A DNA stretch of 64,000 nucleotides from a virus. Taxonomy: Duplodnaviria > Heunggongvirae > Uroviricota > Caudoviricetes. Shown here one piece after another: positions 13,531 to 60,898 of the stretch; position 1 is the first letter of the stretch; the number at the start of each line of letters is the position of its first letter. The position numbers and the translations under genes were made by a program. The notes beneath the pieces are model-generated. The model was not told the DNA's origin. It did no database searches and saw only the letters and a list, made by a program, of their open reading frames with translations. The stretch lies in the IMG/VR virus record IMGVR_UViG_3300028048_001599. One strand, written 5' to 3'.

Positions 13531-13630
13531 TTGAAAAACTCCTTTGTTTTAAGATTGTAAGTATAGTATACCGTAGGTTTATCATTTTGTAAATAAATTT
13601 TTAAAAAATAATTTCAAAAATATTTTTAAA

Positions 13631-13666
13631 CATGGTATTGACAAATTCTGAAATTTATGTTATAAT
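13631..13666 (+). promoter_or_regulatory. Consensus sigma-A promoter (element-wide promoter family)
   Basis: CATGGTA-TTGACA-17 nt-TATAAT with extended -10 TG. Confidence 0.8.
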
Positions 13667-13901
13667 ATAGAAAATGTAACTATTGTGCCTGGTGTTTATA
13701 ATTTTGATACATTGACTTATAATTGTTCACTTGAATATTTATATGACACTTTTGACTTTCTATTTTCTGAAACTTGTATTTTCAACAAATTGTAGGTTTC
13801 ATTTTTGTTATAGTTGTATATTGATTTTTATAATAGAATAGAATAAAATAGAATAAGGTAATTGATTAATGGTATCAATAAATACATAGGTGGGGTAATA
13901 A

Positions 13902-24876: not shown

Positions 24877-24995
24877 ATTTAGAAACTAATACATTTGTAG
24901 TTCGCATAAAAGGGGTATTATGGCCTTAGCATTATTGATTACATTATTGATAGTATTAATACATAGAATAAAAAAGAGCTATTTTTAACCTAAAT

Positions 24996-26318
24996 GGGCA
25001 AGAAGTCCTCCACCTCTTAGGTGGAGGGATGAGTTGCTCGTCAGCCGCAAGGCTGACTTTTAGTTGACTTATGATTCCGTTTATGTTATCTTTGAGATAA
25101 AGAGGTGAGAGCAACATGAACAAAGCCTACAAATTCAGGATATACCCTAATGAAGAACAAAGAATACTGATAGCAAAGACATTTGGTTGTGTCAGATTTA
25201 TCTACAATAAGATGTTGGGTGACAAGATAGAATACTATCATCAGACACAGAAAAAACTGAATAATACTCCTGCACAGTATAAAACCGAATTTGAGTGGCT
25301 GAAAGAAGTAGATAGTCTTGCCCTTGCCAATGCGCAGATGAATTTGCAGGATGCATATAATAACTTTTTCCGAGATAAGAAAGTGGGTTTCCCTAAGTTC
25401 AAATCAAAAAAAGGCAGTAAAAGAAGTTATACAACTAATTGGGTAAATGGTAATATCATTGTTCGGGATGGTATGATAAGACTTCCGAAATTAGGTTTTG
25501 TCAAAATGAAACAACACAGAAACATACCCGATGATTACAAACTGAAATCTGTTACTGTAAGTCAGAACGCAGGCGGTAAATATTTCGCAAGTATTCTTTT
25601 TGAGTATGAAGAAGAAATCACAGAGAAAAAACTTGAAAGTTTTATCGGTCTGGATTTTTCTATGCACGAATTGTATGTTGACAGCAACGGTAATTGTCCA
25701 CAGTTTCCGAGATATTACAGATTATCCGAAAAGAAACTCAAAAAAGAACAAAGAAAGCTGTCGAAAATGGTGAAAGGTTCAAGAAACAGAGAAAAACAGC
25801 GTATCAAAGTTGCTAAACTGCATGAAAAGGTTGCCAACCAAAGAAAGGATTTTCTGCACAAGCAGTCAAGACAGATAGCCAATGTTTATGATTGTGTGTA
25901 TATTGAAAATCTGAATATGCGGGCTATGGCACAGTCACTGAATTTCGGTAAATCCGTTTCGGACAACGGTTGGGGAATGTTTACGGCATTTCTGAAATAC
26001 AAGTTAGAGGAACTCGGAAAAAGACTTGTAAAAATAGATAAGTTTTTTGCAAGTTCACAGATTTGCAGCGTATGCGGATATCAAAATCCCGATACAAAAA
26101 ATTTGTCTGTCAGAGAATGGATTTGTCCTTACTGTCAAACAAATCATAACAGAGATATAAACGCTGCTATAAACATACGAAATGAAGGTATGAGAATAGT
26201 ATTAGCGTAAAAAACAAAACAAGAACCGTGGGACACACGGGGTTAGCTCGTTGATACTGTATGGGTTACCATACTTGAGCGAGAAGCCCACACCTCTATA
26301 GGTGGGGGAGTATGTCAC
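24996..26318 (+). mobile_element. Non-autonomous IS200/IS605-family element (tnpB only, IS1341-like)
   Basis: Left-end hairpin CCTCCACCT-CTT-AGGTGGAGG (25007-25027); related right-end hairpin CACCT-CTAT-AGGTG followed by ...GTATGTCAC (ends 26318); internal promoter TTGACT-17-TATCTT; no tnpA; left boundary after TAAAT is inferred. Confidence 0.85.
25116..26210 (+). CDS. tnpB: RNA-guided endonuclease TnpB (IS200/IS605 family)
   Basis: MNKAYKFRIYP N-terminus; RuvC GLDFS / IENL / NRDINAAINI; CxxC..CxxC zinc finger. Confidence 0.95.
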   Translation: MNKAYKFRIYPNEEQRILIAKTFGCVRFIYNKMLGDKIEYYHQTQKKLNNTPAQYKTEFEWLKEVDSLALANAQMNLQDAYNNFFRDKKVGFPKFKSKKGSKRSYTTNWVNGNIIVRDGMIRLPKLGFVKMKQHRNIPDDYKLKSVTVSQNAGGKYFASILFEYEEEITEKKLESFIGLDFSMHELYVDSNGNCPQFPRYYRLSEKKLKKEQRKLSKMVKGSRNREKQRIKVAKLHEKVANQRKDFLHKQSRQIANVYDCVYIENLNMRAMAQSLNFGKSVSDNGWGMFTAFLKYKLEELGKRLVKIDKFFASSQICSVCGYQNPDTKNLSVREWICPYCQTNHNRDINAAINIRNEGMRIVLA

Positions 26319-37421: not shown

Positions 37422-39221
37422 ATGCAGTGGTGGAAAGACTTAATAAAGTGGTGTAAAGAGCACTGGAAGTTAGTGTTAATAACAACAATAGGGGTAGTCG
37501 CAGCCTATCTTGTCATATTCTTTTGTTTCTTTTACGATAGCACAGAGATTAAGGAAGTGTCATACAATCAGTTTTTAGATTATGTAGAAACTGGAGCTGT
37601 TGACACAGTCTATTATAATAAGAACGTGGAGTATATAACCTTTACAATGTATAATGACGATACAAGGGGGTTATCCAAAGAGGAACGAAAGGATTATAAT
37701 TACAAAAATGAGGATAAGCGTAAGGTATTAAATCCCAACAAAGACACGTTCCGTGAGGACATGCTGTTAAAGGATGTAAACATTGTGAAGACCGATGACA
37801 ACAAGGAACTCATTTCAGCAATTCTGAGTCTTATAACGACAATTGCTATATACATTATAATAATCAAATTAATGATGAGCATAATGGTACCAGGTAGCAA
37901 CATTAATGAAAAAGACATGATACAGAAAACCGATGTCACCTTTGATGATATCATAGGACATGATGAAATCATAAATGACGTCAAATTTATCACGGAATTA
38001 ATCAAGCACCCTGAGAAGGGTGAGAAAATAGGTGCTAAATTGCCACACGGTATCTTATTAGAAGGACCTCCTGGTACTGGTAAGACACTAATAGCAAAAG
38101 CAATTGCACATGAGGCTGATGTACCGTTCATAAATCAAAATGCATCTGGGTTCATTGAGATGTATGTAGGTCTTGGTGCAAAACGTGTAAGGAGTTTGTT
38201 TAAACTTGCAAAGAAAAAAGCACCATGTATCATATTCATCGATGAAATCGATGCAATAGGGGTAGCCCGTGACTCAAAGAATAGTCACAGTGAAAATGAG
38301 CAAACGATAAACGCACTGCTTCAAGAAATGGACGGTTTTGGAACTGCCGATAACATATTTGTAATCGCAGCTACAAATAGAGCTGACGCACTGGATAAAG
38401 CACTTGTTAGGTCAGGTAGATTTGACCGAAGGATAGTTGTTAATCCACCGAGGGATTGGACAGTAAGACGTGACTTGTTTAATCATTACCTTGATAAATA
38501 TAAGGTTGCCGATGATTTGGATATTGATACATTGGCAAAGCAAACATCAGGGTTCACAGGTGCTGATATAGCGATGGTATGTAACGAGGCAAGTATAATA
38601 GCTGTAATGGCAGATAGTGAGGTCATCAATAAGGACGACTTAGAGAGTGCTATTGATAGGAAGATATTCAGGGGTAACCGTTCAAAGGCTGAGACAGACA
38701 CGTCAGATAGGCAAATAGTAGCATATCATGAGGCTGGTCACGCAGTAATGACATGGTTACTTGGTAGACCAATAGCACGTGCAAGTATTCAATCAACAAC
38801 AAGTGGGGTAGGCGGAGCTGTATTCAGAGAAGACACGACATCGAAGTTTACTTCTAATAAAGACTTGAGAGAACTGGTAATGATAGCTTACGCAGGTAGA
38901 GCTTCCGAGGACATCAAGTTCAAATCTCTGTCTGACGGTGCAAGTAATGATATTACAAAGGCAACTGAGATGATGACAGAGTATATTGAGCGTCTTGGGT
39001 TTGATGATGATTTTGGTCTACTGGACATGGGGGTACTCAGCAGAGAACACTTGTTAGACAGCAAAGACATAACTAAAAAATTATCACAGATGTCTAAGGA
39101 ATTGTACACTGAGTGTAAGCAAAAGCTAAACGATAACTATGGTAAGGTCGAGACATTGGCTCAAAGTTTACTTGATTGTAACACATTAAGTGGTGACGAA
39201 ATAGATAAATTACTACAATAA
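37422..39221 (+). CDS. ftsH: ATP-dependent zinc metalloprotease FtsH
   Basis: Two TM helices, Walker A GPPGTGKT, pore motif FIEMYVG, Walker B IFIDEID, SRH ATNR..LDKALVRSGRFDR, HEAGH zinc motif, GASND. Confidence 0.95.
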   Translation: MQWWKDLIKWCKEHWKLVLITTIGVVAAYLVIFFCFFYDSTEIKEVSYNQFLDYVETGAVDTVYYNKNVEYITFTMYNDDTRGLSKEERKDYNYKNEDKRKVLNPNKDTFREDMLLKDVNIVKTDDNKELISAILSLITTIAIYIIIIKLMMSIMVPGSNINEKDMIQKTDVTFDDIIGHDEIINDVKFITELIKHPEKGEKIGAKLPHGILLEGPPGTGKTLIAKAIAHEADVPFINQNASGFIEMYVGLGAKRVRSLFKLAKKKAPCIIFIDEIDAIGVARDSKNSHSENEQTINALLQEMDGFGTADNIFVIAATNRADALDKALVRSGRFDRRIVVNPPRDWTVRRDLFNHYLDKYKVADDLDIDTLAKQTSGFTGADIAMVCNEASIIAVMADSEVINKDDLESAIDRKIFRGNRSKAETDTSDRQIVAYHEAGHAVMTWLLGRPIARASIQSTTSGVGGAVFREDTTSKFTSNKDLRELVMIAYAGRASEDIKFKSLSDGASNDITKATEMMTEYIERLGFDDDFGLLDMGVLSREHLLDSKDITKKLSQMSKELYTECKQKLNDNYGKVETLAQSLLDCNTLSGDEIDKLLQ

Positions 39222-39232
39222 TCATCAGTAAT

Positions 39233-39263
39233 AGACCGTCCTTAAATATTTAAGGACGGTTTT
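39233..39263 (+). terminator. Rho-independent terminator after ftsH
   Basis: ACCGTCCTTAAA-TA-TTTAAGGACGGT followed by TTT. Confidence 0.8.
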
Positions 39264-39275
39264 AAATTTAGTTAG

Positions 39276-39313
39276 CACATGGTATTGACATTTTAAGAAA
39301 AATATGGTATAAT
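39276..39313 (+). promoter_or_regulatory. Consensus sigma-A promoter (element-wide promoter family)
   Basis: CACATGGTA-TTGACA-17-TATAAT with extended -10 TG. Confidence 0.85.
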
Positions 39314-39329
39314 TATATGTAATAATGGG

Positions 39330-39450
39330 TAAAATAGAGGGGTATAGCTCGATTTTACGCCTGTGAAGTTAATAGGTTACGAGAACGATGACGTAGGAAG
39401 TTCATTGGCTTTAGACAATGTGTAGTTCACATAGTAGCTATTGTGAGCGT
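39330..39450 (+). ncRNA. Orphan IS200/IS605-type omegaRNA-like scaffold with putative guide; no adjacent tnpB
   Basis: Order TTTACGCCTGTG...GGTTACGAG..CGATGA.GTAGGAAG..CATTGGCTTTAGACAATG.GTAGTTCAC matches the recalled IS605 right-end/omegaRNA pattern; lies directly behind a promoter. Confidence 0.6.
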
Positions 39451-39480
39451 TATAATCAAAATCAAAGAAGGTGATACATA

Positions 39481-41271
39481 ATGTTATCCTATAACAATCT
39501 AAAGAAAATCAATTTACTCAACAAAGAAAACAAAGTACCCTCATGGAGGGTGTCATCATATGGTGTTTCTTTGAGTGTATACTCTGAGTTTTGTTGTATA
39601 ACACGTGGTTCATCTGTGGAACGTATTAAAATCCAGAAATTAATACAAGCTGTGGAGCAAAATAAGATTCATATTCAAAATATAAGTATTCTTAGGAATT
39701 GGATAAATAGTAGAGATGGTCAGGATTCACCTGTTGACAGTGTATCTGTTTACACAGGAAATACTCTTAAAACTCTTGTGGATAACGACTTAAATGATAT
39801 CACGGCAGAACGTGACTTCGTTTCAAGTATATACAAGTATGTAACAAGTAATAGAAATGAAGTTATGGGGGTACATGGACTCCGTGGTGTTGGAAAATCT
39901 ATAGGTCTTATGCAAGTCATAAGGTTGTTAAATGACTTTGATAATACGGTTTACCTTGTAGTAAATCCTGAACAATCATTAGATTACAGCGACTTTTATA
40001 AGTTATTATTTTCAGTTACAAAATATCGAAAATATATTTTTATTGATGAAATCACTTATGTATCAAATTTTATAAATAAGTCAGCAAATCTATATGAAGC
40101 ATTAGTTTTAATGGGTAAACGTGTAGTAATTTGTGGCACTAATTCATTAGCTTTGGTATCTTCTAAATCAGCAGCATTGTACCATAGAATAGGGATATTA
40201 CCTGTTTCTTTTATGTCTTACTTTGAAGCAAAGCGAACTGCTCACATTTCAAATTTTATTGAATATTTGGAGATGGGTGGACTTTATGATAAAGATAGAC
40301 TTGGTAGCTTTTCAGATTTGGAAAATTATATAGATACTTCAGTGGTTGATAATATTGTAGGCACTCTCAGTAAGAACATGGTAACAAGTCATTTGGCGGC
40401 ATTGTATAATTTGTCAATCACTTCTAAAAACATCGGATTAGTCAAGCAGCGAATGAAAACAATTATTTTTAAGATACTATTTGATATTATATTTTCACTC
40501 AGTAAATCCGATATAAAAATAGATATGAATATACTACCGTATTTATTTAATTCATACAGTAGTAGTTCAGACATATATGACACAATAGGGATTGAAAATA
40601 GCTCAATAGGGGTATATGAAACAAGGGTTGTTTTAAAGGCACTTTATGAAATTGGTCTATTAAATAAGGTCGAGAATATAGCAAAATGTGGTGAGTTTAA
40701 GTATTATATTACAAACCAATCTGTTTATAATCAGATGTTATGTCAAATAGTAAACATACCATTTAGAGATGGTTACAGCTTAAACGAGTTTCGTGGTGTT
40801 AAAAGTCGATTGGGTCTACTAATGGAAAGTGCAGTAATAAACCACACGTATGAGATAGTCAGAAAAATGAAGGATATCTCGATATATTATTATCGTGACG
40901 GTAATAAGGAAATTGACTTAATAATTCGTAGACATGTTTATGATTTAGATGACTTAGATAATTATGATAAATACCTATATTATGAAATAAAAATATCATC
41001 AGATACGGCTTATGCATCTATAAAGGCTCAATGGATAACTGATAAATCAATAGGGTCACCTGAAAAGGTTGTAGGTAGGGCAGTAATTTATAACGGTATT
41101 ACAACAGTATATGATGGGGTAACAAAGCCGAAGAAATCAATACCTAATATGTCAACCGAAAAACAAACTCAAATAATGCAAAGAAACAAAGGTTTACAGT
41201 TTATAAATGTCGAGGATTACCTAAGAAATTTACCGTCTTACATTGATGATTTAATGAACGCAAAGTTCTAA
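39481..41271 (+). CDS. AAA+ ATPase (AAA_14-like) with C-terminal DUF4143-like PD-(D/E)XK domain
   Basis: Walker A GLRGVGKS, Walker B IFIDEI, GTNS, YLEMGG, C-terminal YYRD..EIDLII..YEIK. Confidence 0.8.
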   Translation: MLSYNNLKKINLLNKENKVPSWRVSSYGVSLSVYSEFCCITRGSSVERIKIQKLIQAVEQNKIHIQNISILRNWINSRDGQDSPVDSVSVYTGNTLKTLVDNDLNDITAERDFVSSIYKYVTSNRNEVMGVHGLRGVGKSIGLMQVIRLLNDFDNTVYLVVNPEQSLDYSDFYKLLFSVTKYRKYIFIDEITYVSNFINKSANLYEALVLMGKRVVICGTNSLALVSSKSAALYHRIGILPVSFMSYFEAKRTAHISNFIEYLEMGGLYDKDRLGSFSDLENYIDTSVVDNIVGTLSKNMVTSHLAALYNLSITSKNIGLVKQRMKTIIFKILFDIIFSLSKSDIKIDMNILPYLFNSYSSSSDIYDTIGIENSSIGVYETRVVLKALYEIGLLNKVENIAKCGEFKYYITNQSVYNQMLCQIVNIPFRDGYSLNEFRGVKSRLGLLMESAVINHTYEIVRKMKDISIYYYRDGNKEIDLIIRRHVYDLDDLDNYDKYLYYEIKISSDTAYASIKAQWITDKSIGSPEKVVGRAVIYNGITTVYDGVTKPKKSIPNMSTEKQTQIMQRNKGLQFINVEDYLRNLPSYIDDLMNAKF

Positions 41272-41298
41272 TATAGTAAACAAAAAGAAGGAATAAAA

Positions 41299-42177
41299 AT
41301 GACAGAACAGGATGTTAAAACATTAAGGGACACGGTGTTACTGTTAAAAAGTCATTCAGTCACATCGGTTCTGAAATACCTATTAAGTGATATGTGTACA
41401 AACTCAAAGTGTGACCATTGTTATTTTGAGGACGATTGTGATAGTGTAGTTGGGGTATTTGACAAAACAACAAAAATCATGAGTAATTTAGATATGAAGT
41501 TTACATCTGGGGTGTTGTGTCATTCACCCACAGACTTGATAGACTACCCATCAAAGTATAACGCACTTTTAGGAACTACTGTTCAATATATGTGTCAACT
41601 TTATCATTACCAAACAACTAAGGAAATAATTTTTAATGACCTTTTGGCACATGTACCAAGTAAGGTAGATACTCAAGCTGTTATTGAAGCTCTTAGTCAT
41701 GTTACCAACGATATAAACGATTACAGTTCTGTTCGTTGTTTGTTTAAGGCGAGTAGTTTAATACATAGTTTTGATGTTGACAAAATTCCAAATAGTATAA
41801 TATGGGTGGCAATTGAATTAACTAAGCGTTGTGCATCATTCTTAATGTCAAAAGGTTCAATGTACTTTAATAAGCATTTGTTTACCAATTGTAACTATAT
41901 TAATAGTGGGGTAGTTGATTTCAACGGTGATAATGTAGTAATAGACATGAAATGTACCAAATATGAACCTACACTACAAGATAAATGGCAAATCTTAATA
42001 TACGCTGGTATACTTAAGGCATATTATAAGTTTGATATCACTACGGCTTACTTTGTAAATCCTGTTCTTAACAAGTATTATTATTTTGAATGTGAAAAGT
42101 TAAATCATACGGAGGCTATAAAAATTCTTGAAGCATTAACCTTAAACACTGCTGAAAATATTATAGTAAACAGATAA
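41299..42177 (+). CDS. PD-(D/E)XK (RecB/Cas4-like) nuclease domain protein
   Basis: GVVD...VIDMK...QILIYA motifs; N-terminal Cys cluster. Confidence 0.65.
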   Translation: MTEQDVKTLRDTVLLLKSHSVTSVLKYLLSDMCTNSKCDHCYFEDDCDSVVGVFDKTTKIMSNLDMKFTSGVLCHSPTDLIDYPSKYNALLGTTVQYMCQLYHYQTTKEIIFNDLLAHVPSKVDTQAVIEALSHVTNDINDYSSVRCLFKASSLIHSFDVDKIPNSIIWVAIELTKRCASFLMSKGSMYFNKHLFTNCNYINSGVVDFNGDNVVIDMKCTKYEPTLQDKWQILIYAGILKAYYKFDITTAYFVNPVLNKYYYFECEKLNHTEAIKILEALTLNTAENIIVNR

Positions 42178-42186
42178 ATTTTTTAT

Positions 42187-42224
42187 CACATGCTATTGAC
42201 AAAATACGACAAATATGTTATAAT
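42187..42224 (+). promoter_or_regulatory. Consensus sigma-A promoter (element-wide promoter family)
   Basis: CACATGCTA-TTGACA-17-TATAAT with extended -10 TG. Confidence 0.85.
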
Positions 42225-42258
42225 GGTAATATAAAAATTCAAAGAGGGGATTGATAAA

Positions 42259-43653
42259 ATGGATTGGCAAGTAATAAACAAGGATTTATGTTGTATAGAC
42301 AATGTATATAATGACATTGAGGACTTAACCTACTTTCCGGTTGTAAAGAATGGTGAGTTAGAGATGAAGGGTTTGGCACTACAAATCAGTGACCTTGCCG
42401 TTTCTGAGATGCGTAGGTATTACCCAAATGCTACCGTTGCATGGTCATACCTAATGTTTCTACTCAAGACATCAATGTGTTATGTCGAATATACGGGGTA
42501 TAATGGACAACTCCGAAAAATGATTCTTTGTTCTAATATGAACATTCTTAGAGAATGTAAGGACTTCAATGTGGCGAACCTTAATTATCACGTAACCGAT
42601 GCAACTAACCTAAATAAATATAATGGTACTCACTTGAACGGTGGTATGAATACTGAATTAAAAGCTGTAAAGATAAATAAGAAACTCATTACTGAGTTGA
42701 AAACACCAATACTGCTCAAGGGTACGACAATACGTGTAGCACCCCTATGCTTGATGCTAAGAAACGCAGCGATTGTACTTAGTAGAGATGGTATAACTCG
42801 ATATAATTATTATAAAGATAATGGTTCTCTCCGTTCTCTCGTATCAACGAAAGACAGGGGTATTTTAATAAAGCACTATACATCTGAAAAGGCATCTGAA
42901 ATGCTCGATGGTGCATCACTTACTCTTGATACACTATTTAATCGTGGATATATCCGAATTGTGGAACTTGGGGCTTCAAAATATGATTCTGGTGTTCGTG
43001 CTATCAACGTTGCTAAAATTAAATCTGCGGAGGAAATTTCTGATGATGAGGTTGACTACAGGTTTGTTGATGTAGAGTTCGATACAATAGTAGATACATT
43101 TAAGTATCATCTCGAACGTCAGTCGGATATTGAGTTACTTAATAAAATCAATAGTGATTTTAATGAAAATGCTGAACATTCAGAGAGTAAACCTTATATT
43201 CTTAATGAAATATTCAAAAAGGTTGACAGTAATGTGACTTATGGGTCTACACAGTACCTCAGACAGCTTTACTTGTATATGGCAGACAGACCTGAGATAT
43301 TCGGTGCATCCGTAGCACCGACTTTTGATATTAATATGGGGGTATCGGACATCAACATATCTGATGGTGGTACATTCACCTTTGAGGACATGGCAGATTT
43401 AGGTGTTTTGGAGAACACTGAGATTGTCGGTGGCACTGTGGGCACTGAGGTTGTTAGTGACACCATGGACACTGAGTTTGTTAGTGACGCCGTGGACACT
43501 GAGGTTGTTGGGGACTCATTCAATCTTGACATATCAGACCTTGGTGTAAATATGGGTGTATCCGAATCAGGTTCAGGTGAAAAATGGGTTAGCAAAGCCA
43601 CAGCAGTAGATACTGAAGAACTTCCGGCAAAGAAGAAATTCGTATTTGAATGA
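42259..43653 (+). CDS. Hypothetical protein with WYL-like/SH3 beta-barrel (DUF2693-like) repeats; paralog of 46602-48545
   Basis: YVEYTGYNGQLRKM and YNYYKDNGSLRSLVST motifs; acidic repetitive tail. Confidence 0.6.
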   Translation: MDWQVINKDLCCIDNVYNDIEDLTYFPVVKNGELEMKGLALQISDLAVSEMRRYYPNATVAWSYLMFLLKTSMCYVEYTGYNGQLRKMILCSNMNILRECKDFNVANLNYHVTDATNLNKYNGTHLNGGMNTELKAVKINKKLITELKTPILLKGTTIRVAPLCLMLRNAAIVLSRDGITRYNYYKDNGSLRSLVSTKDRGILIKHYTSEKASEMLDGASLTLDTLFNRGYIRIVELGASKYDSGVRAINVAKIKSAEEISDDEVDYRFVDVEFDTIVDTFKYHLERQSDIELLNKINSDFNENAEHSESKPYILNEIFKKVDSNVTYGSTQYLRQLYLYMADRPEIFGASVAPTFDINMGVSDINISDGGTFTFEDMADLGVLENTEIVGGTVGTEVVSDTMDTEFVSDAVDTEVVGDSFNLDISDLGVNMGVSESGSGEKWVSKATAVDTEELPAKKKFVFE

Positions 43654-59547: not shown

Positions 59548-59817
59548 ATGAAAAAACCTACAAAATTGCAATACTATAGGAAATTTGTGAATGGGTTTAC
59601 AGTAAACGAATTATCAGCTATAACAGGTATAACAGTAAGTTCAATAAATAAGTACGAAACAGGGGTAATGGATTTGAATAATGCATCTATTACTATTGTT
59701 AAAAGACTTGCAAGAGCATTAAATTGTACAACAGATGATTTAACAGACTCACTTGATGACATAGACAAGGGGTTGAATAGTTATGATAAGAACAGTAACA
59801 ATAAGGTTAAGACCTGA
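59548..59817 (+). CDS. Xre/Cro-type HTH regulator, paralog of 13902-14108
   Basis: YYRK..FTVNELSAITGITVSSINKYETG..NAS..VKRLARALNCTTDDL; 3' end overlaps the tnpB start. Confidence 0.85.
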   Translation: MKKPTKLQYYRKFVNGFTVNELSAITGITVSSINKYETGVMDLNNASITIVKRLARALNCTTDDLTDSLDDIDKGLNSYDKNSNNKVKT

Positions 59818-60898
59818 TAAACTACAAAGTAATAAAATGATGCGAATAGCTGGTTGTAGTAGGTTTTGTTATAATGAACTCCTTAAATATTGGGATTCAT
59901 ATTATACTGAAGTAGATTGTAGTCCATCTGTATATGAATTGCGCGATTATGTAACAATGTTAAAACAACAATACGTGTGGTTAAATGAGTTACCATATCA
60001 CACGATGAATGGAGTAATAAAGAACTTACAGACTGCATTTAGTAAATTCTTCAAAAATAAAATTGACCATCCTTCTATACATAAGAGGAATAGTAACCAT
60101 ATATCCTTTCCCATTAGGACAGATAGGATAAAATTTTGTGGTAATGTTATAGTAATTCCGAGCATAGGAAGAATGAGATTCAAGAACATATCTAAGTATG
60201 AATTAAATGGTATAAAAACCGCGTCACTTGTGTATGATGGTTTATGTTGGTACTTAAAAATAGCAACATGTGTATATACTAACACATGTTGTCAAAAACA
60301 AGGTAAGATAGGTATAGACTTGGGGTATCGAACACTTGCAAGTGCCTACGATGGAACTGATACTTACACCTATGAAAACATAATGAATGAAGATGAGACT
60401 GAGGGTTCTGACCATATACAAAAGTTAGAAAAAAGACTACAAGTCATAGATAAAATAATCTCAGATAAAAAGAAACTCAATAAAACATCAAATAACATAA
60501 ATAAGTTATATTATAAACGTGCGAAACTAAAAAGACGTATGGCAAATATACAAAGAACATATCAGCATATTATATCAAAGTATATTATAAGTAGACGACC
60601 TATGAAGATTATATTTGAAACATTAGATATATCAGAACAAAAAGCAAAGGATAATATACTACCCAATAGATATAAATTGACTGCATTGTACCAATTCTAC
60701 ACATTTATAATATACAAGGCTGAGGAATTAGGTATACAGATTATTCGTGTTGATAAATATTATCCATCAACAAAGCGATGTTGTAAATGTGGTGCAATAA
60801 ATGAAGTTGGTGTAAGTAAGGTATATACATGTAAAAATTGTAATCTGAAGATAGATAGGGATATAAATGCTTCAATAAACTTATATAATTATGTTTAA
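59783..60898 (+). CDS. tnpB: Divergent TnpB/Cas12f-like RNA-guided endonuclease (IS607-type), no cognate transposase
   Basis: MIRTVTIRLRP..AGCSRFCYN N-terminus; RuvC GIDLG / IFETL / DRDINASINL intact; YPSTKRC..C..C..C zinc finger. Confidence 0.85.
   Translation: MIRTVTIRLRPDKLQSNKMMRIAGCSRFCYNELLKYWDSYYTEVDCSPSVYELRDYVTMLKQQYVWLNELPYHTMNGVIKNLQTAFSKFFKNKIDHPSIHKRNSNHISFPIRTDRIKFCGNVIVIPSIGRMRFKNISKYELNGIKTASLVYDGLCWYLKIATCVYTNTCCQKQGKIGIDLGYRTLASAYDGTDTYTYENIMNEDETEGSDHIQKLEKRLQVIDKIISDKKKLNKTSNNINKLYYKRAKLKRRMANIQRTYQHIISKYIISRRPMKIIFETLDISEQKAKDNILPNRYKLTALYQFYTFIIYKAEELGIQIIRVDKYYPSTKRCCKCGAINEVGVSKVYTCKNCNLKIDRDINASINLYNYV

Follow-up and report, generated by a model that had tools for sequence, protein, structure and literature searches.

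Between an ftsH-like gene and an ATPase gene in 64,000 nt of viral DNA (the window) lies a block, 39326-39430, that looks like the guide-RNA scaffold of a TnpB nuclease, stands directly behind a strong promoter and has no tnpB beside it. The locus raises the question of whether the block is a guide-RNA gene in its own right, as the original prediction held, or a remnant of an insertion sequence (IS). Our analysis indicates that it is probably a 5′-truncated solo right-end relic of an IS605-family IS, most likely transcribed as a leader, and not a designed guide-RNA gene.

Layout of the locus

The intergenic region that holds the block spans 39222-39480. Upstream is a gene for an ftsH-like AAA protease (37422-39221, + strand; Pfam AAA, Peptidase_M41 and FtsH_ext), which is followed by an inverted repeat and T-run at 39234-39264 (+), a likely terminator. 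This 26-nt self-complementary match was recognized by reading the sequence and is missing from the terminator-scan list; it is kept at loci L143, L149, L151 and L153-L156. Between it and the ATPase gene, the predicted TTGACA-17-TATAAT promoter is indeed present: a sigma-70 promoter at 39285-39313 (+) that matches the consensus at 12 of 12 positions and carries an extended TG. The motif GGGGTAT at 39339-39345 (+) is a haplotype junction between promoter-proximal sequence of the L153 type and the relic of the L149 type. The block itself, on the + strand, was delimited using a covariance model (R2, below), collinearity with tnpB-linked right ends, and an audit of helices and invariant sites. The flank that adjoins its right end, 39431-39450 (+), would be the guide if a TnpB used the RNA.

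Downstream, the original prediction of an ATPase-nuclease pair was borne out. The first gene (39481-41271, +), whose leader contains the relic, encodes an AAA_14/DUF4143 ATPase that resembles PADLOC PDC-S01; after a gap of 27 nt, the second (41299-42177, +) encodes a Cas4/PD-(D/E)xK-like nuclease (PADLOC RTasPDDEXK, PDC-S61 and Cas4). By its sequence, TTCACA-19-TATAAT at 39426-39456 (+; TATAAT at 39451-39456) is a candidate for a weaker ATPase promoter. Its 19-nt spacer falls outside the range of 16-18 used in the promoter scan. This candidate could serve the ATPase gene in haplotypes in which the strong promoter is far off.

Only the promoter part of the locus has paralogues in the window, at 13630 and 42187, as judged by blastn and alignment. 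An extended promoter sequence of ~50 nt (CACATGNTATTGACA...TATGNTATAAT) is common to three promoters (13614-13700, 39260-39345 and 42171-42262), and this sequence is apparently the element's own strong promoter type.

Family of the block and its missing partners

Searches of Rfam at gathering and permissive thresholds found nothing in the block, but they are uninformative, as they also missed a genuine right end, that of tnpB-1. The window holds two tnpB genes, TnpB-1 at 25116-26210 and TnpB-2 at 59783-60898. A covariance model built from 12 right ends of TnpB-1 relatives (R1) gave 104 bits to the right end of TnpB-1 itself and 47-63 bits to relatives outside its training set. The possibility that the block is the omegaRNA of the resident TnpB-1 element was rejected using this model, which gave -1.0 bits even when the search was confined to the 110 nt. 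A relation to the right ends of either resident tnpB was likewise discarded, as blastn and direct alignment revealed zero similarity.

A second model, R2, was built from 29 diverse tnpB-linked right ends of a single IS605-family IS (tnpA+tnpB) that is common in gut phage contigs. Using R2 to search the 64 kb on both strands with filters off, we obtained a match over the full model span at 39326-39430 (77.6 bits, E ~ 1e-15); the next-best match in the window was the TnpB-1 right end at 17.7 bits. For reference, tnpB-linked members of the family score 65-121 bits and their 46-nt mini-copies, in which the left end (LE) joins the right end (RE), score 24-40 bits. The helices of R2, namely P1, P2/P2b and P3, are paired in 96.4% of cells and have a covariation score of 0.40, versus 0.19 in shuffled alignments and at most 0.09 with the pairs slid. 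The original reading of the ~110 nt, which begin at about 39336, as an IS200/IS605 right-end/omegaRNA scaffold is thus correct. Specifically, the CATTG/CAATG hairpin is helix P3 of the family, the tentative CCTG/TAGG pairing is helix P2, and the TCAC end (39427-39430) is part of the family's TTCAC terminus. Clear homology to the family runs from about 39346, in the 3′ half of P1, to that terminus at 39430.

Sequence searches pointed to the same family. Phage record MT838469.1, the sole blastn match among phage records, contains a tnpB and then a right end, the last 36 nt of which are 92% identical to the 3′ part of the block. Exact copies of the 21-nt terminus are present at 44 sites in IMG/VR; tnpB lies directly upstream at no fewer than 14 of them, and the right ends at those tnpB-linked loci are collinear with the block over the last 80-90 nt. 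Full elements of the block's family carry both a Y1 tnpA and a tnpB. Plasmid sequences gave no match to the block using blastn, and an exact 20-nt pattern that includes the block-specific TT was absent from viral contigs. Judged from sequence and modelled structure, the block is homologous to an IS200/IS605 right end/TnpB omegaRNA scaffold.

Compared with the IS605-family right ends of human-gut phage contigs (MT838469.1; IMG/VR L191-L270), the block has the same order of P2, P2b and P3 and the same TTCAC terminus followed by unrelated flank, with roughly 85% identity over the last ~85 nt. It differs from them in that tnpB, tnpA and the left end are missing, the 5′ half of P1 is replaced, and 6-7 invariant positions are changed. 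The setting also differs: in those elements tnpB lies immediately upstream, its 3′ end overlapping the RNA, whereas the block lies between a promoter and an ATPase gene.

The cognate TnpB of the family (L197/L190-type) is 49% identical to TnpB-1 and 27% identical to TnpB-2. Using tblastn, the window yielded no trace of tnpB or tnpA besides TnpB-1 (25116, 47%) and TnpB-2 (59783, 27%). No tnpA, tnpB or left end of the family was found in the window or the sister haplotypes, no left-end motif or TAM-LE junction occurs upstream of the block in the window or in any haplotype locus, and R2 detected no LE-RE mini-copies in the window. The claim that no tnpB remnant or left end is adjacent can thus be widened, for the block's family, to the whole window. 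The family's target motif is TTGAA, which precedes 21 of 26 distinct left ends.

Several related elements were observed along the way. In the TnpB-1 element, hairpins of the left end lie at about 24990-25060 and the right end (104 bits using R1) at 26225-26318; there is no adjacent tnpA. The 46-nt mini-element, which is protein-less and joins the left-end start to the right-end terminus through a shared hairpin, is present in ~20 copies at IMG/VR loci L273-L312 (e.g., L279:854-899 and L292:10197-10242). It nearly always follows TTGAA and once, in L303, directly follows the TTCAC end of another copy. Finally, a full-length scaffold of the same family at L283:2903-3026 (-), which scores 90 bits, is an apparent orphan in that no tnpB was detected within 1.5 kb upstream; its middle part is the closest sequence to the block.

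Condition of the scaffold and its flank

We evaluated how much of the family structure the block retains. P2/P2b has 9 of its 9 pairs and P3 has 7 of 8 in the window and 8 of 8 in haplotype B, with G-U wobbles making up part of the pairing. P1, which covaries in the family, has lost its 5′ half, replaced at the GGGGTAT junction; 4 of 6 or 5 of 6 pairs can be formed, only under a gapped model alignment. The changes in P1 are G13A and C25T in the window copy, and a deleted G18 and C25T in haplotype B. At positions that are invariant in the training set, the block is changed at 6-7 of 37, versus 0-4, and mostly 0-1, in 16 other members. Four changes (A29T, G48A, A68C and C70T) are unique to the block, and A29T, G48A and A68C lie in the single-stranded core; three unique changes fall at positions that are invariant in 45 other members.

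An invariant GAAUU at positions 27-31 is complementary to an invariant AGUUC just before the terminus, and this pairing is formed in 98% of the family. This near-invariant, putative pseudoknot is the likely counterpart of the one needed by ISDra2 TnpB. A29-U104, the central pair of this putative pseudoknot, is found unchanged in 29 of 29 members; in the block, A29T breaks it. The RNA of the block is nevertheless not heavily decayed: P2/P2b and P3 are still paired, and some divergent tnpB-linked members (65.6-79.6 bits) score in the same range. ISDra2 TnpB requires only a 116-nt 3′ omegaRNA scaffold (PMC10097598), so the missing 5′ sequence would not by itself be disqualifying.

The ISDra2 omegaRNA (Nakagawa et al., PMC10097598) resembles the block in having a 3′ scaffold of ~100-116 nt with stems, a pseudoknot that uses the last pre-guide nucleotides, and a guide supplied by the flanking DNA. 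It belongs to a different sequence family, however, and the corresponding pseudoknot of the block, GAAUU with AGUUC, is putative and mismatched.

The flank at 39431-39450 has three variable sites among haplotypes. An excess of variation in this would-be guide was considered and rejected, as two 20-nt bins inside the ATPase gene have as many variable sites. Overall, the haplotypes vary at ~2% of sites with no special pattern in scaffold or guide, and are too similar to show either selection or its absence. The original prediction also proposed that the guide folds back on the scaffold end and might act as a switch. The pairing exists in the window haplotype, at -8.6 kcal/mol, but it is not conserved: single-nucleotide differences break it in the haplotype B variants, which reach -4.1 and -2.4 kcal/mol. 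Among 47 right-end-plus-flank segments of the family, the fold-back averages -3.2 kcal/mol and is at -6 or lower in about 11%.

Origin of the arrangement and competing readings

The window belongs to a metagenomic element of ~324 kb, near-identical copies of which occur on other contigs. The stretch from ftsH to the gene for a 292-aa nuclease (39222-42258; L140-L159) is a mosaic hotspot of cassettes with at least six haplotypes. Its cargo is defence-like and includes DUF4869 with a PtuA-like AAA_23 protein, a PDC-M03A-like protein, AAA_22 and the PDC-S01-like AAA_14 ATPase, the last of which some haplotypes lack. The same terminator-promoter module stands behind ftsH wherever a haplotype includes the region. 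In haplotype B, this module drives three genes, for a 77-aa product, a DUF4869 protein and an AAA_23 protein, and the relic lies ~1.9 kb downstream, behind these genes and a 31-codon ORF. In L153, the same promoter and leader reach the ribosome-binding site of a 271-aa PDC-M03A-like gene, and L155-L157 have neither the ATPase gene nor the relic. The module drives other cassettes as well, so the promoter is not dedicated to the block, and the claim that the element placed an omegaRNA under a promoter of its own by design is not supported.

The window arrangement combines a left part shared with L153 and a right part shared with haplotype B, which meet in a recombinant junction at GGGGTAT (39339-39345). 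The juxtaposition of promoter and relic occurs in the window's haplotype only, and the layout of the haplotypes suggests that the fusion is accidental there. Haplotypes A and B both retain the relic immediately before the ATPase gene, and in L144 it stands behind a different upstream gene. Haplotype C (L140 and L159) has the ATPase gene but no relic; its point of divergence is exactly TTCAC|ATAG (39430|39431), and it has TTGGA before the shared flank. The right boundary of the relic is thus exactly the terminus of the IS.

Based on these comparisons, a sequence of events can be proposed. An IS of this family would have inserted upstream of the ATPase gene at a haplotype-C-like site; the TTGGA before the shared flank fits such an old insertion, given the family target TTGAA, with haplotype C read as the presumed empty site. 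Later recombination in the hotspot would have stripped away tnpA and tnpB along with the left end and the 5′ half of P1, leaving the last ~85-105 nt of the right end, which encode the 3′ scaffold of a TnpB omegaRNA. An additional exchange, in the window haplotype, would have used the abundant GGGGTA(T) motif to fuse the relic to the resident promoter. With no terminator in the way, RNA polymerase that initiates near 39320 would then transcribe the relic, its flank and the ATPase and nuclease genes beyond, and the relic would accordingly exist as RNA only within the 5′ leader. From its position, transcription as the leader of the ATPase-nuclease genes is thus the most likely fate of the relic, and without a cognate TnpB it would only add structure to that leader.

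The strongest competitor to this account is a working orphan omegaRNA. Here, a cognate TnpB encoded on an unsampled part of the element, the host chromosome or a co-resident phage would take up the processed transcript in trans; the complex would cut relic-less, haplotype-C-like alleles, and homologous repair would favour this haplotype. The abundance of the family IS in gut phage contigs makes a cognate TnpB in the same cells plausible, P2, P2b, P3 and the terminus are intact, and the promoter is strong. Moreover, palindrome-associated transposable elements (PATEs) have been proposed as sources of omegaRNAs that act in trans (PMC10055086), and for another TnpB an omegaRNA on a separate plasmid works in trans (10.1101/2023.11.20.567912). 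Over positions 1-13, the target in haplotype C is identical to the flank of haplotype B, and the TTGGA in front of it departs from the inferred TAM at a single position. Nevertheless, we consider this reading unlikely: a cognate TnpB was not found in the window, P1 is lost and the putative pseudoknot mismatched, the three unique changes touch otherwise invariant positions, the promoter is juxtaposed in one haplotype only, and the TAM of haplotype C is imperfect. Use of the block in trans by a TnpB encoded elsewhere, one of the two roles originally proposed, is rather unlikely on the sequence evidence. Equally improbable is the more specific scenario in which a recombination accident made the orphan scaffold a strongly expressed guide that is loaded by the TnpB of a phage- or host-borne IS and targets relic-less rival alleles (TTGGA or TTGAA, then ATAGTAG...). 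If true, it would constitute a nuclease-free, 'guide-only' drive for the ATPase-nuclease cassette of the 324-kb element.

In a broader form of the other role originally proposed, the relic would be an exapted cis-regulatory leader whose RNA structure, alone or bound by a protein such as TnpB or a nuclease-dead derivative, tunes the stability or translation of the ATPase-nuclease mRNA. The predicted 164-nt leader (start near 39320) is more stable than shuffled sequences (z = -2.64), and the retention of the relic next to the ATPase gene in haplotypes A and B fits such a role. This reading is quite unlikely, as the relic is absent beside the same ATPase in haplotype C, the fold-back hairpin lacks conservation, and the plausible ATPase promoter downstream of the relic means that the mRNA of haplotype B need not contain it. 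In addition, genome, viral and metagenome collections contain more distant homologues of the ATPase, but these lack synteny, and their 40-70-nt spacers hold no such leader. The block could also be a still-mobile miniature element, or PATE, of the IS605 family, and the 46-nt mini-copies of the family are frequent in phage contigs. With no left end or TAM-LE junction upstream in any haplotype, and with the DNA hairpin recognized by TnpA weakened by a CC-to-TT change, this is highly improbable.

The preferred reading, a transcribed relic, can be set against two known kinds of detached guide. PATEs are elements of the IS200/IS605 group with omegaRNA-encoding ends from which the protein genes are absent (Meers et al., PMC10055086). 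The block is similar in being a tnpB-less, omegaRNA-encoding right end that could be served only in trans; unlike PATEs, which have both ends and can be mobilized, it consists of a truncated right end only. The guide RNAs of TldRs, nuclease-dead repressors derived from TnpB (PMC10705468), are likewise TnpB-type guide RNAs detached from transposition and near a promoter. At TldR loci, however, the protein is encoded beside the guide and other promoters are targeted, whereas no such protein lies near the block and its 'guide' is its own flank, without a TAM.

Orphan right ends and PATEs are already known, and the decay of an IS in a recombination hotspot fits the locus better than a designed guide gene. 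The case documents a TnpB guide scaffold that lies stranded downstream of a strong promoter, and it warns that such relics escape Rfam and models made for the wrong TnpB subfamily. Were the block used by a cognate TnpB present in the same cells, it would be a natural guide-only locus that exploits the nucleases of other elements, which would bear on the domestication of TnpB guides. As protein-less omegaRNA ends served in trans have already been discussed for PATEs (PMC10055086), an active block would represent a variant of a known idea.

The hotspot yielded some further observations. GGGGTA occurs 110 times on the + strand of the window and its reverse complement 0 times, against about 11 expected. 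Several hotspot breakpoints fall exactly on GGGGTAT(A)/GGTATA (39339-39345, L149:1973-1980, L155:3066-3073 and L153:3507-3514), which suggests that this polar motif may mark or promote recombination. The idea that haplotype E arose by deletion between the GGGGTA copies at 39339 and 41116 was rejected, as the sequences differ. Finally, the short 31-codon ORF, which has its own ribosome-binding site and begins M-R/T-Y-Y-I-M-N-K-D, is found at L149:1889-1984, L144:479-574 and L155:2981-3160. It ends in GGGGTATAG just before the relic and, in haplotypes without the ATPase gene, runs on as an ORF of 59 aa, overlapping the nuclease gene at its start.
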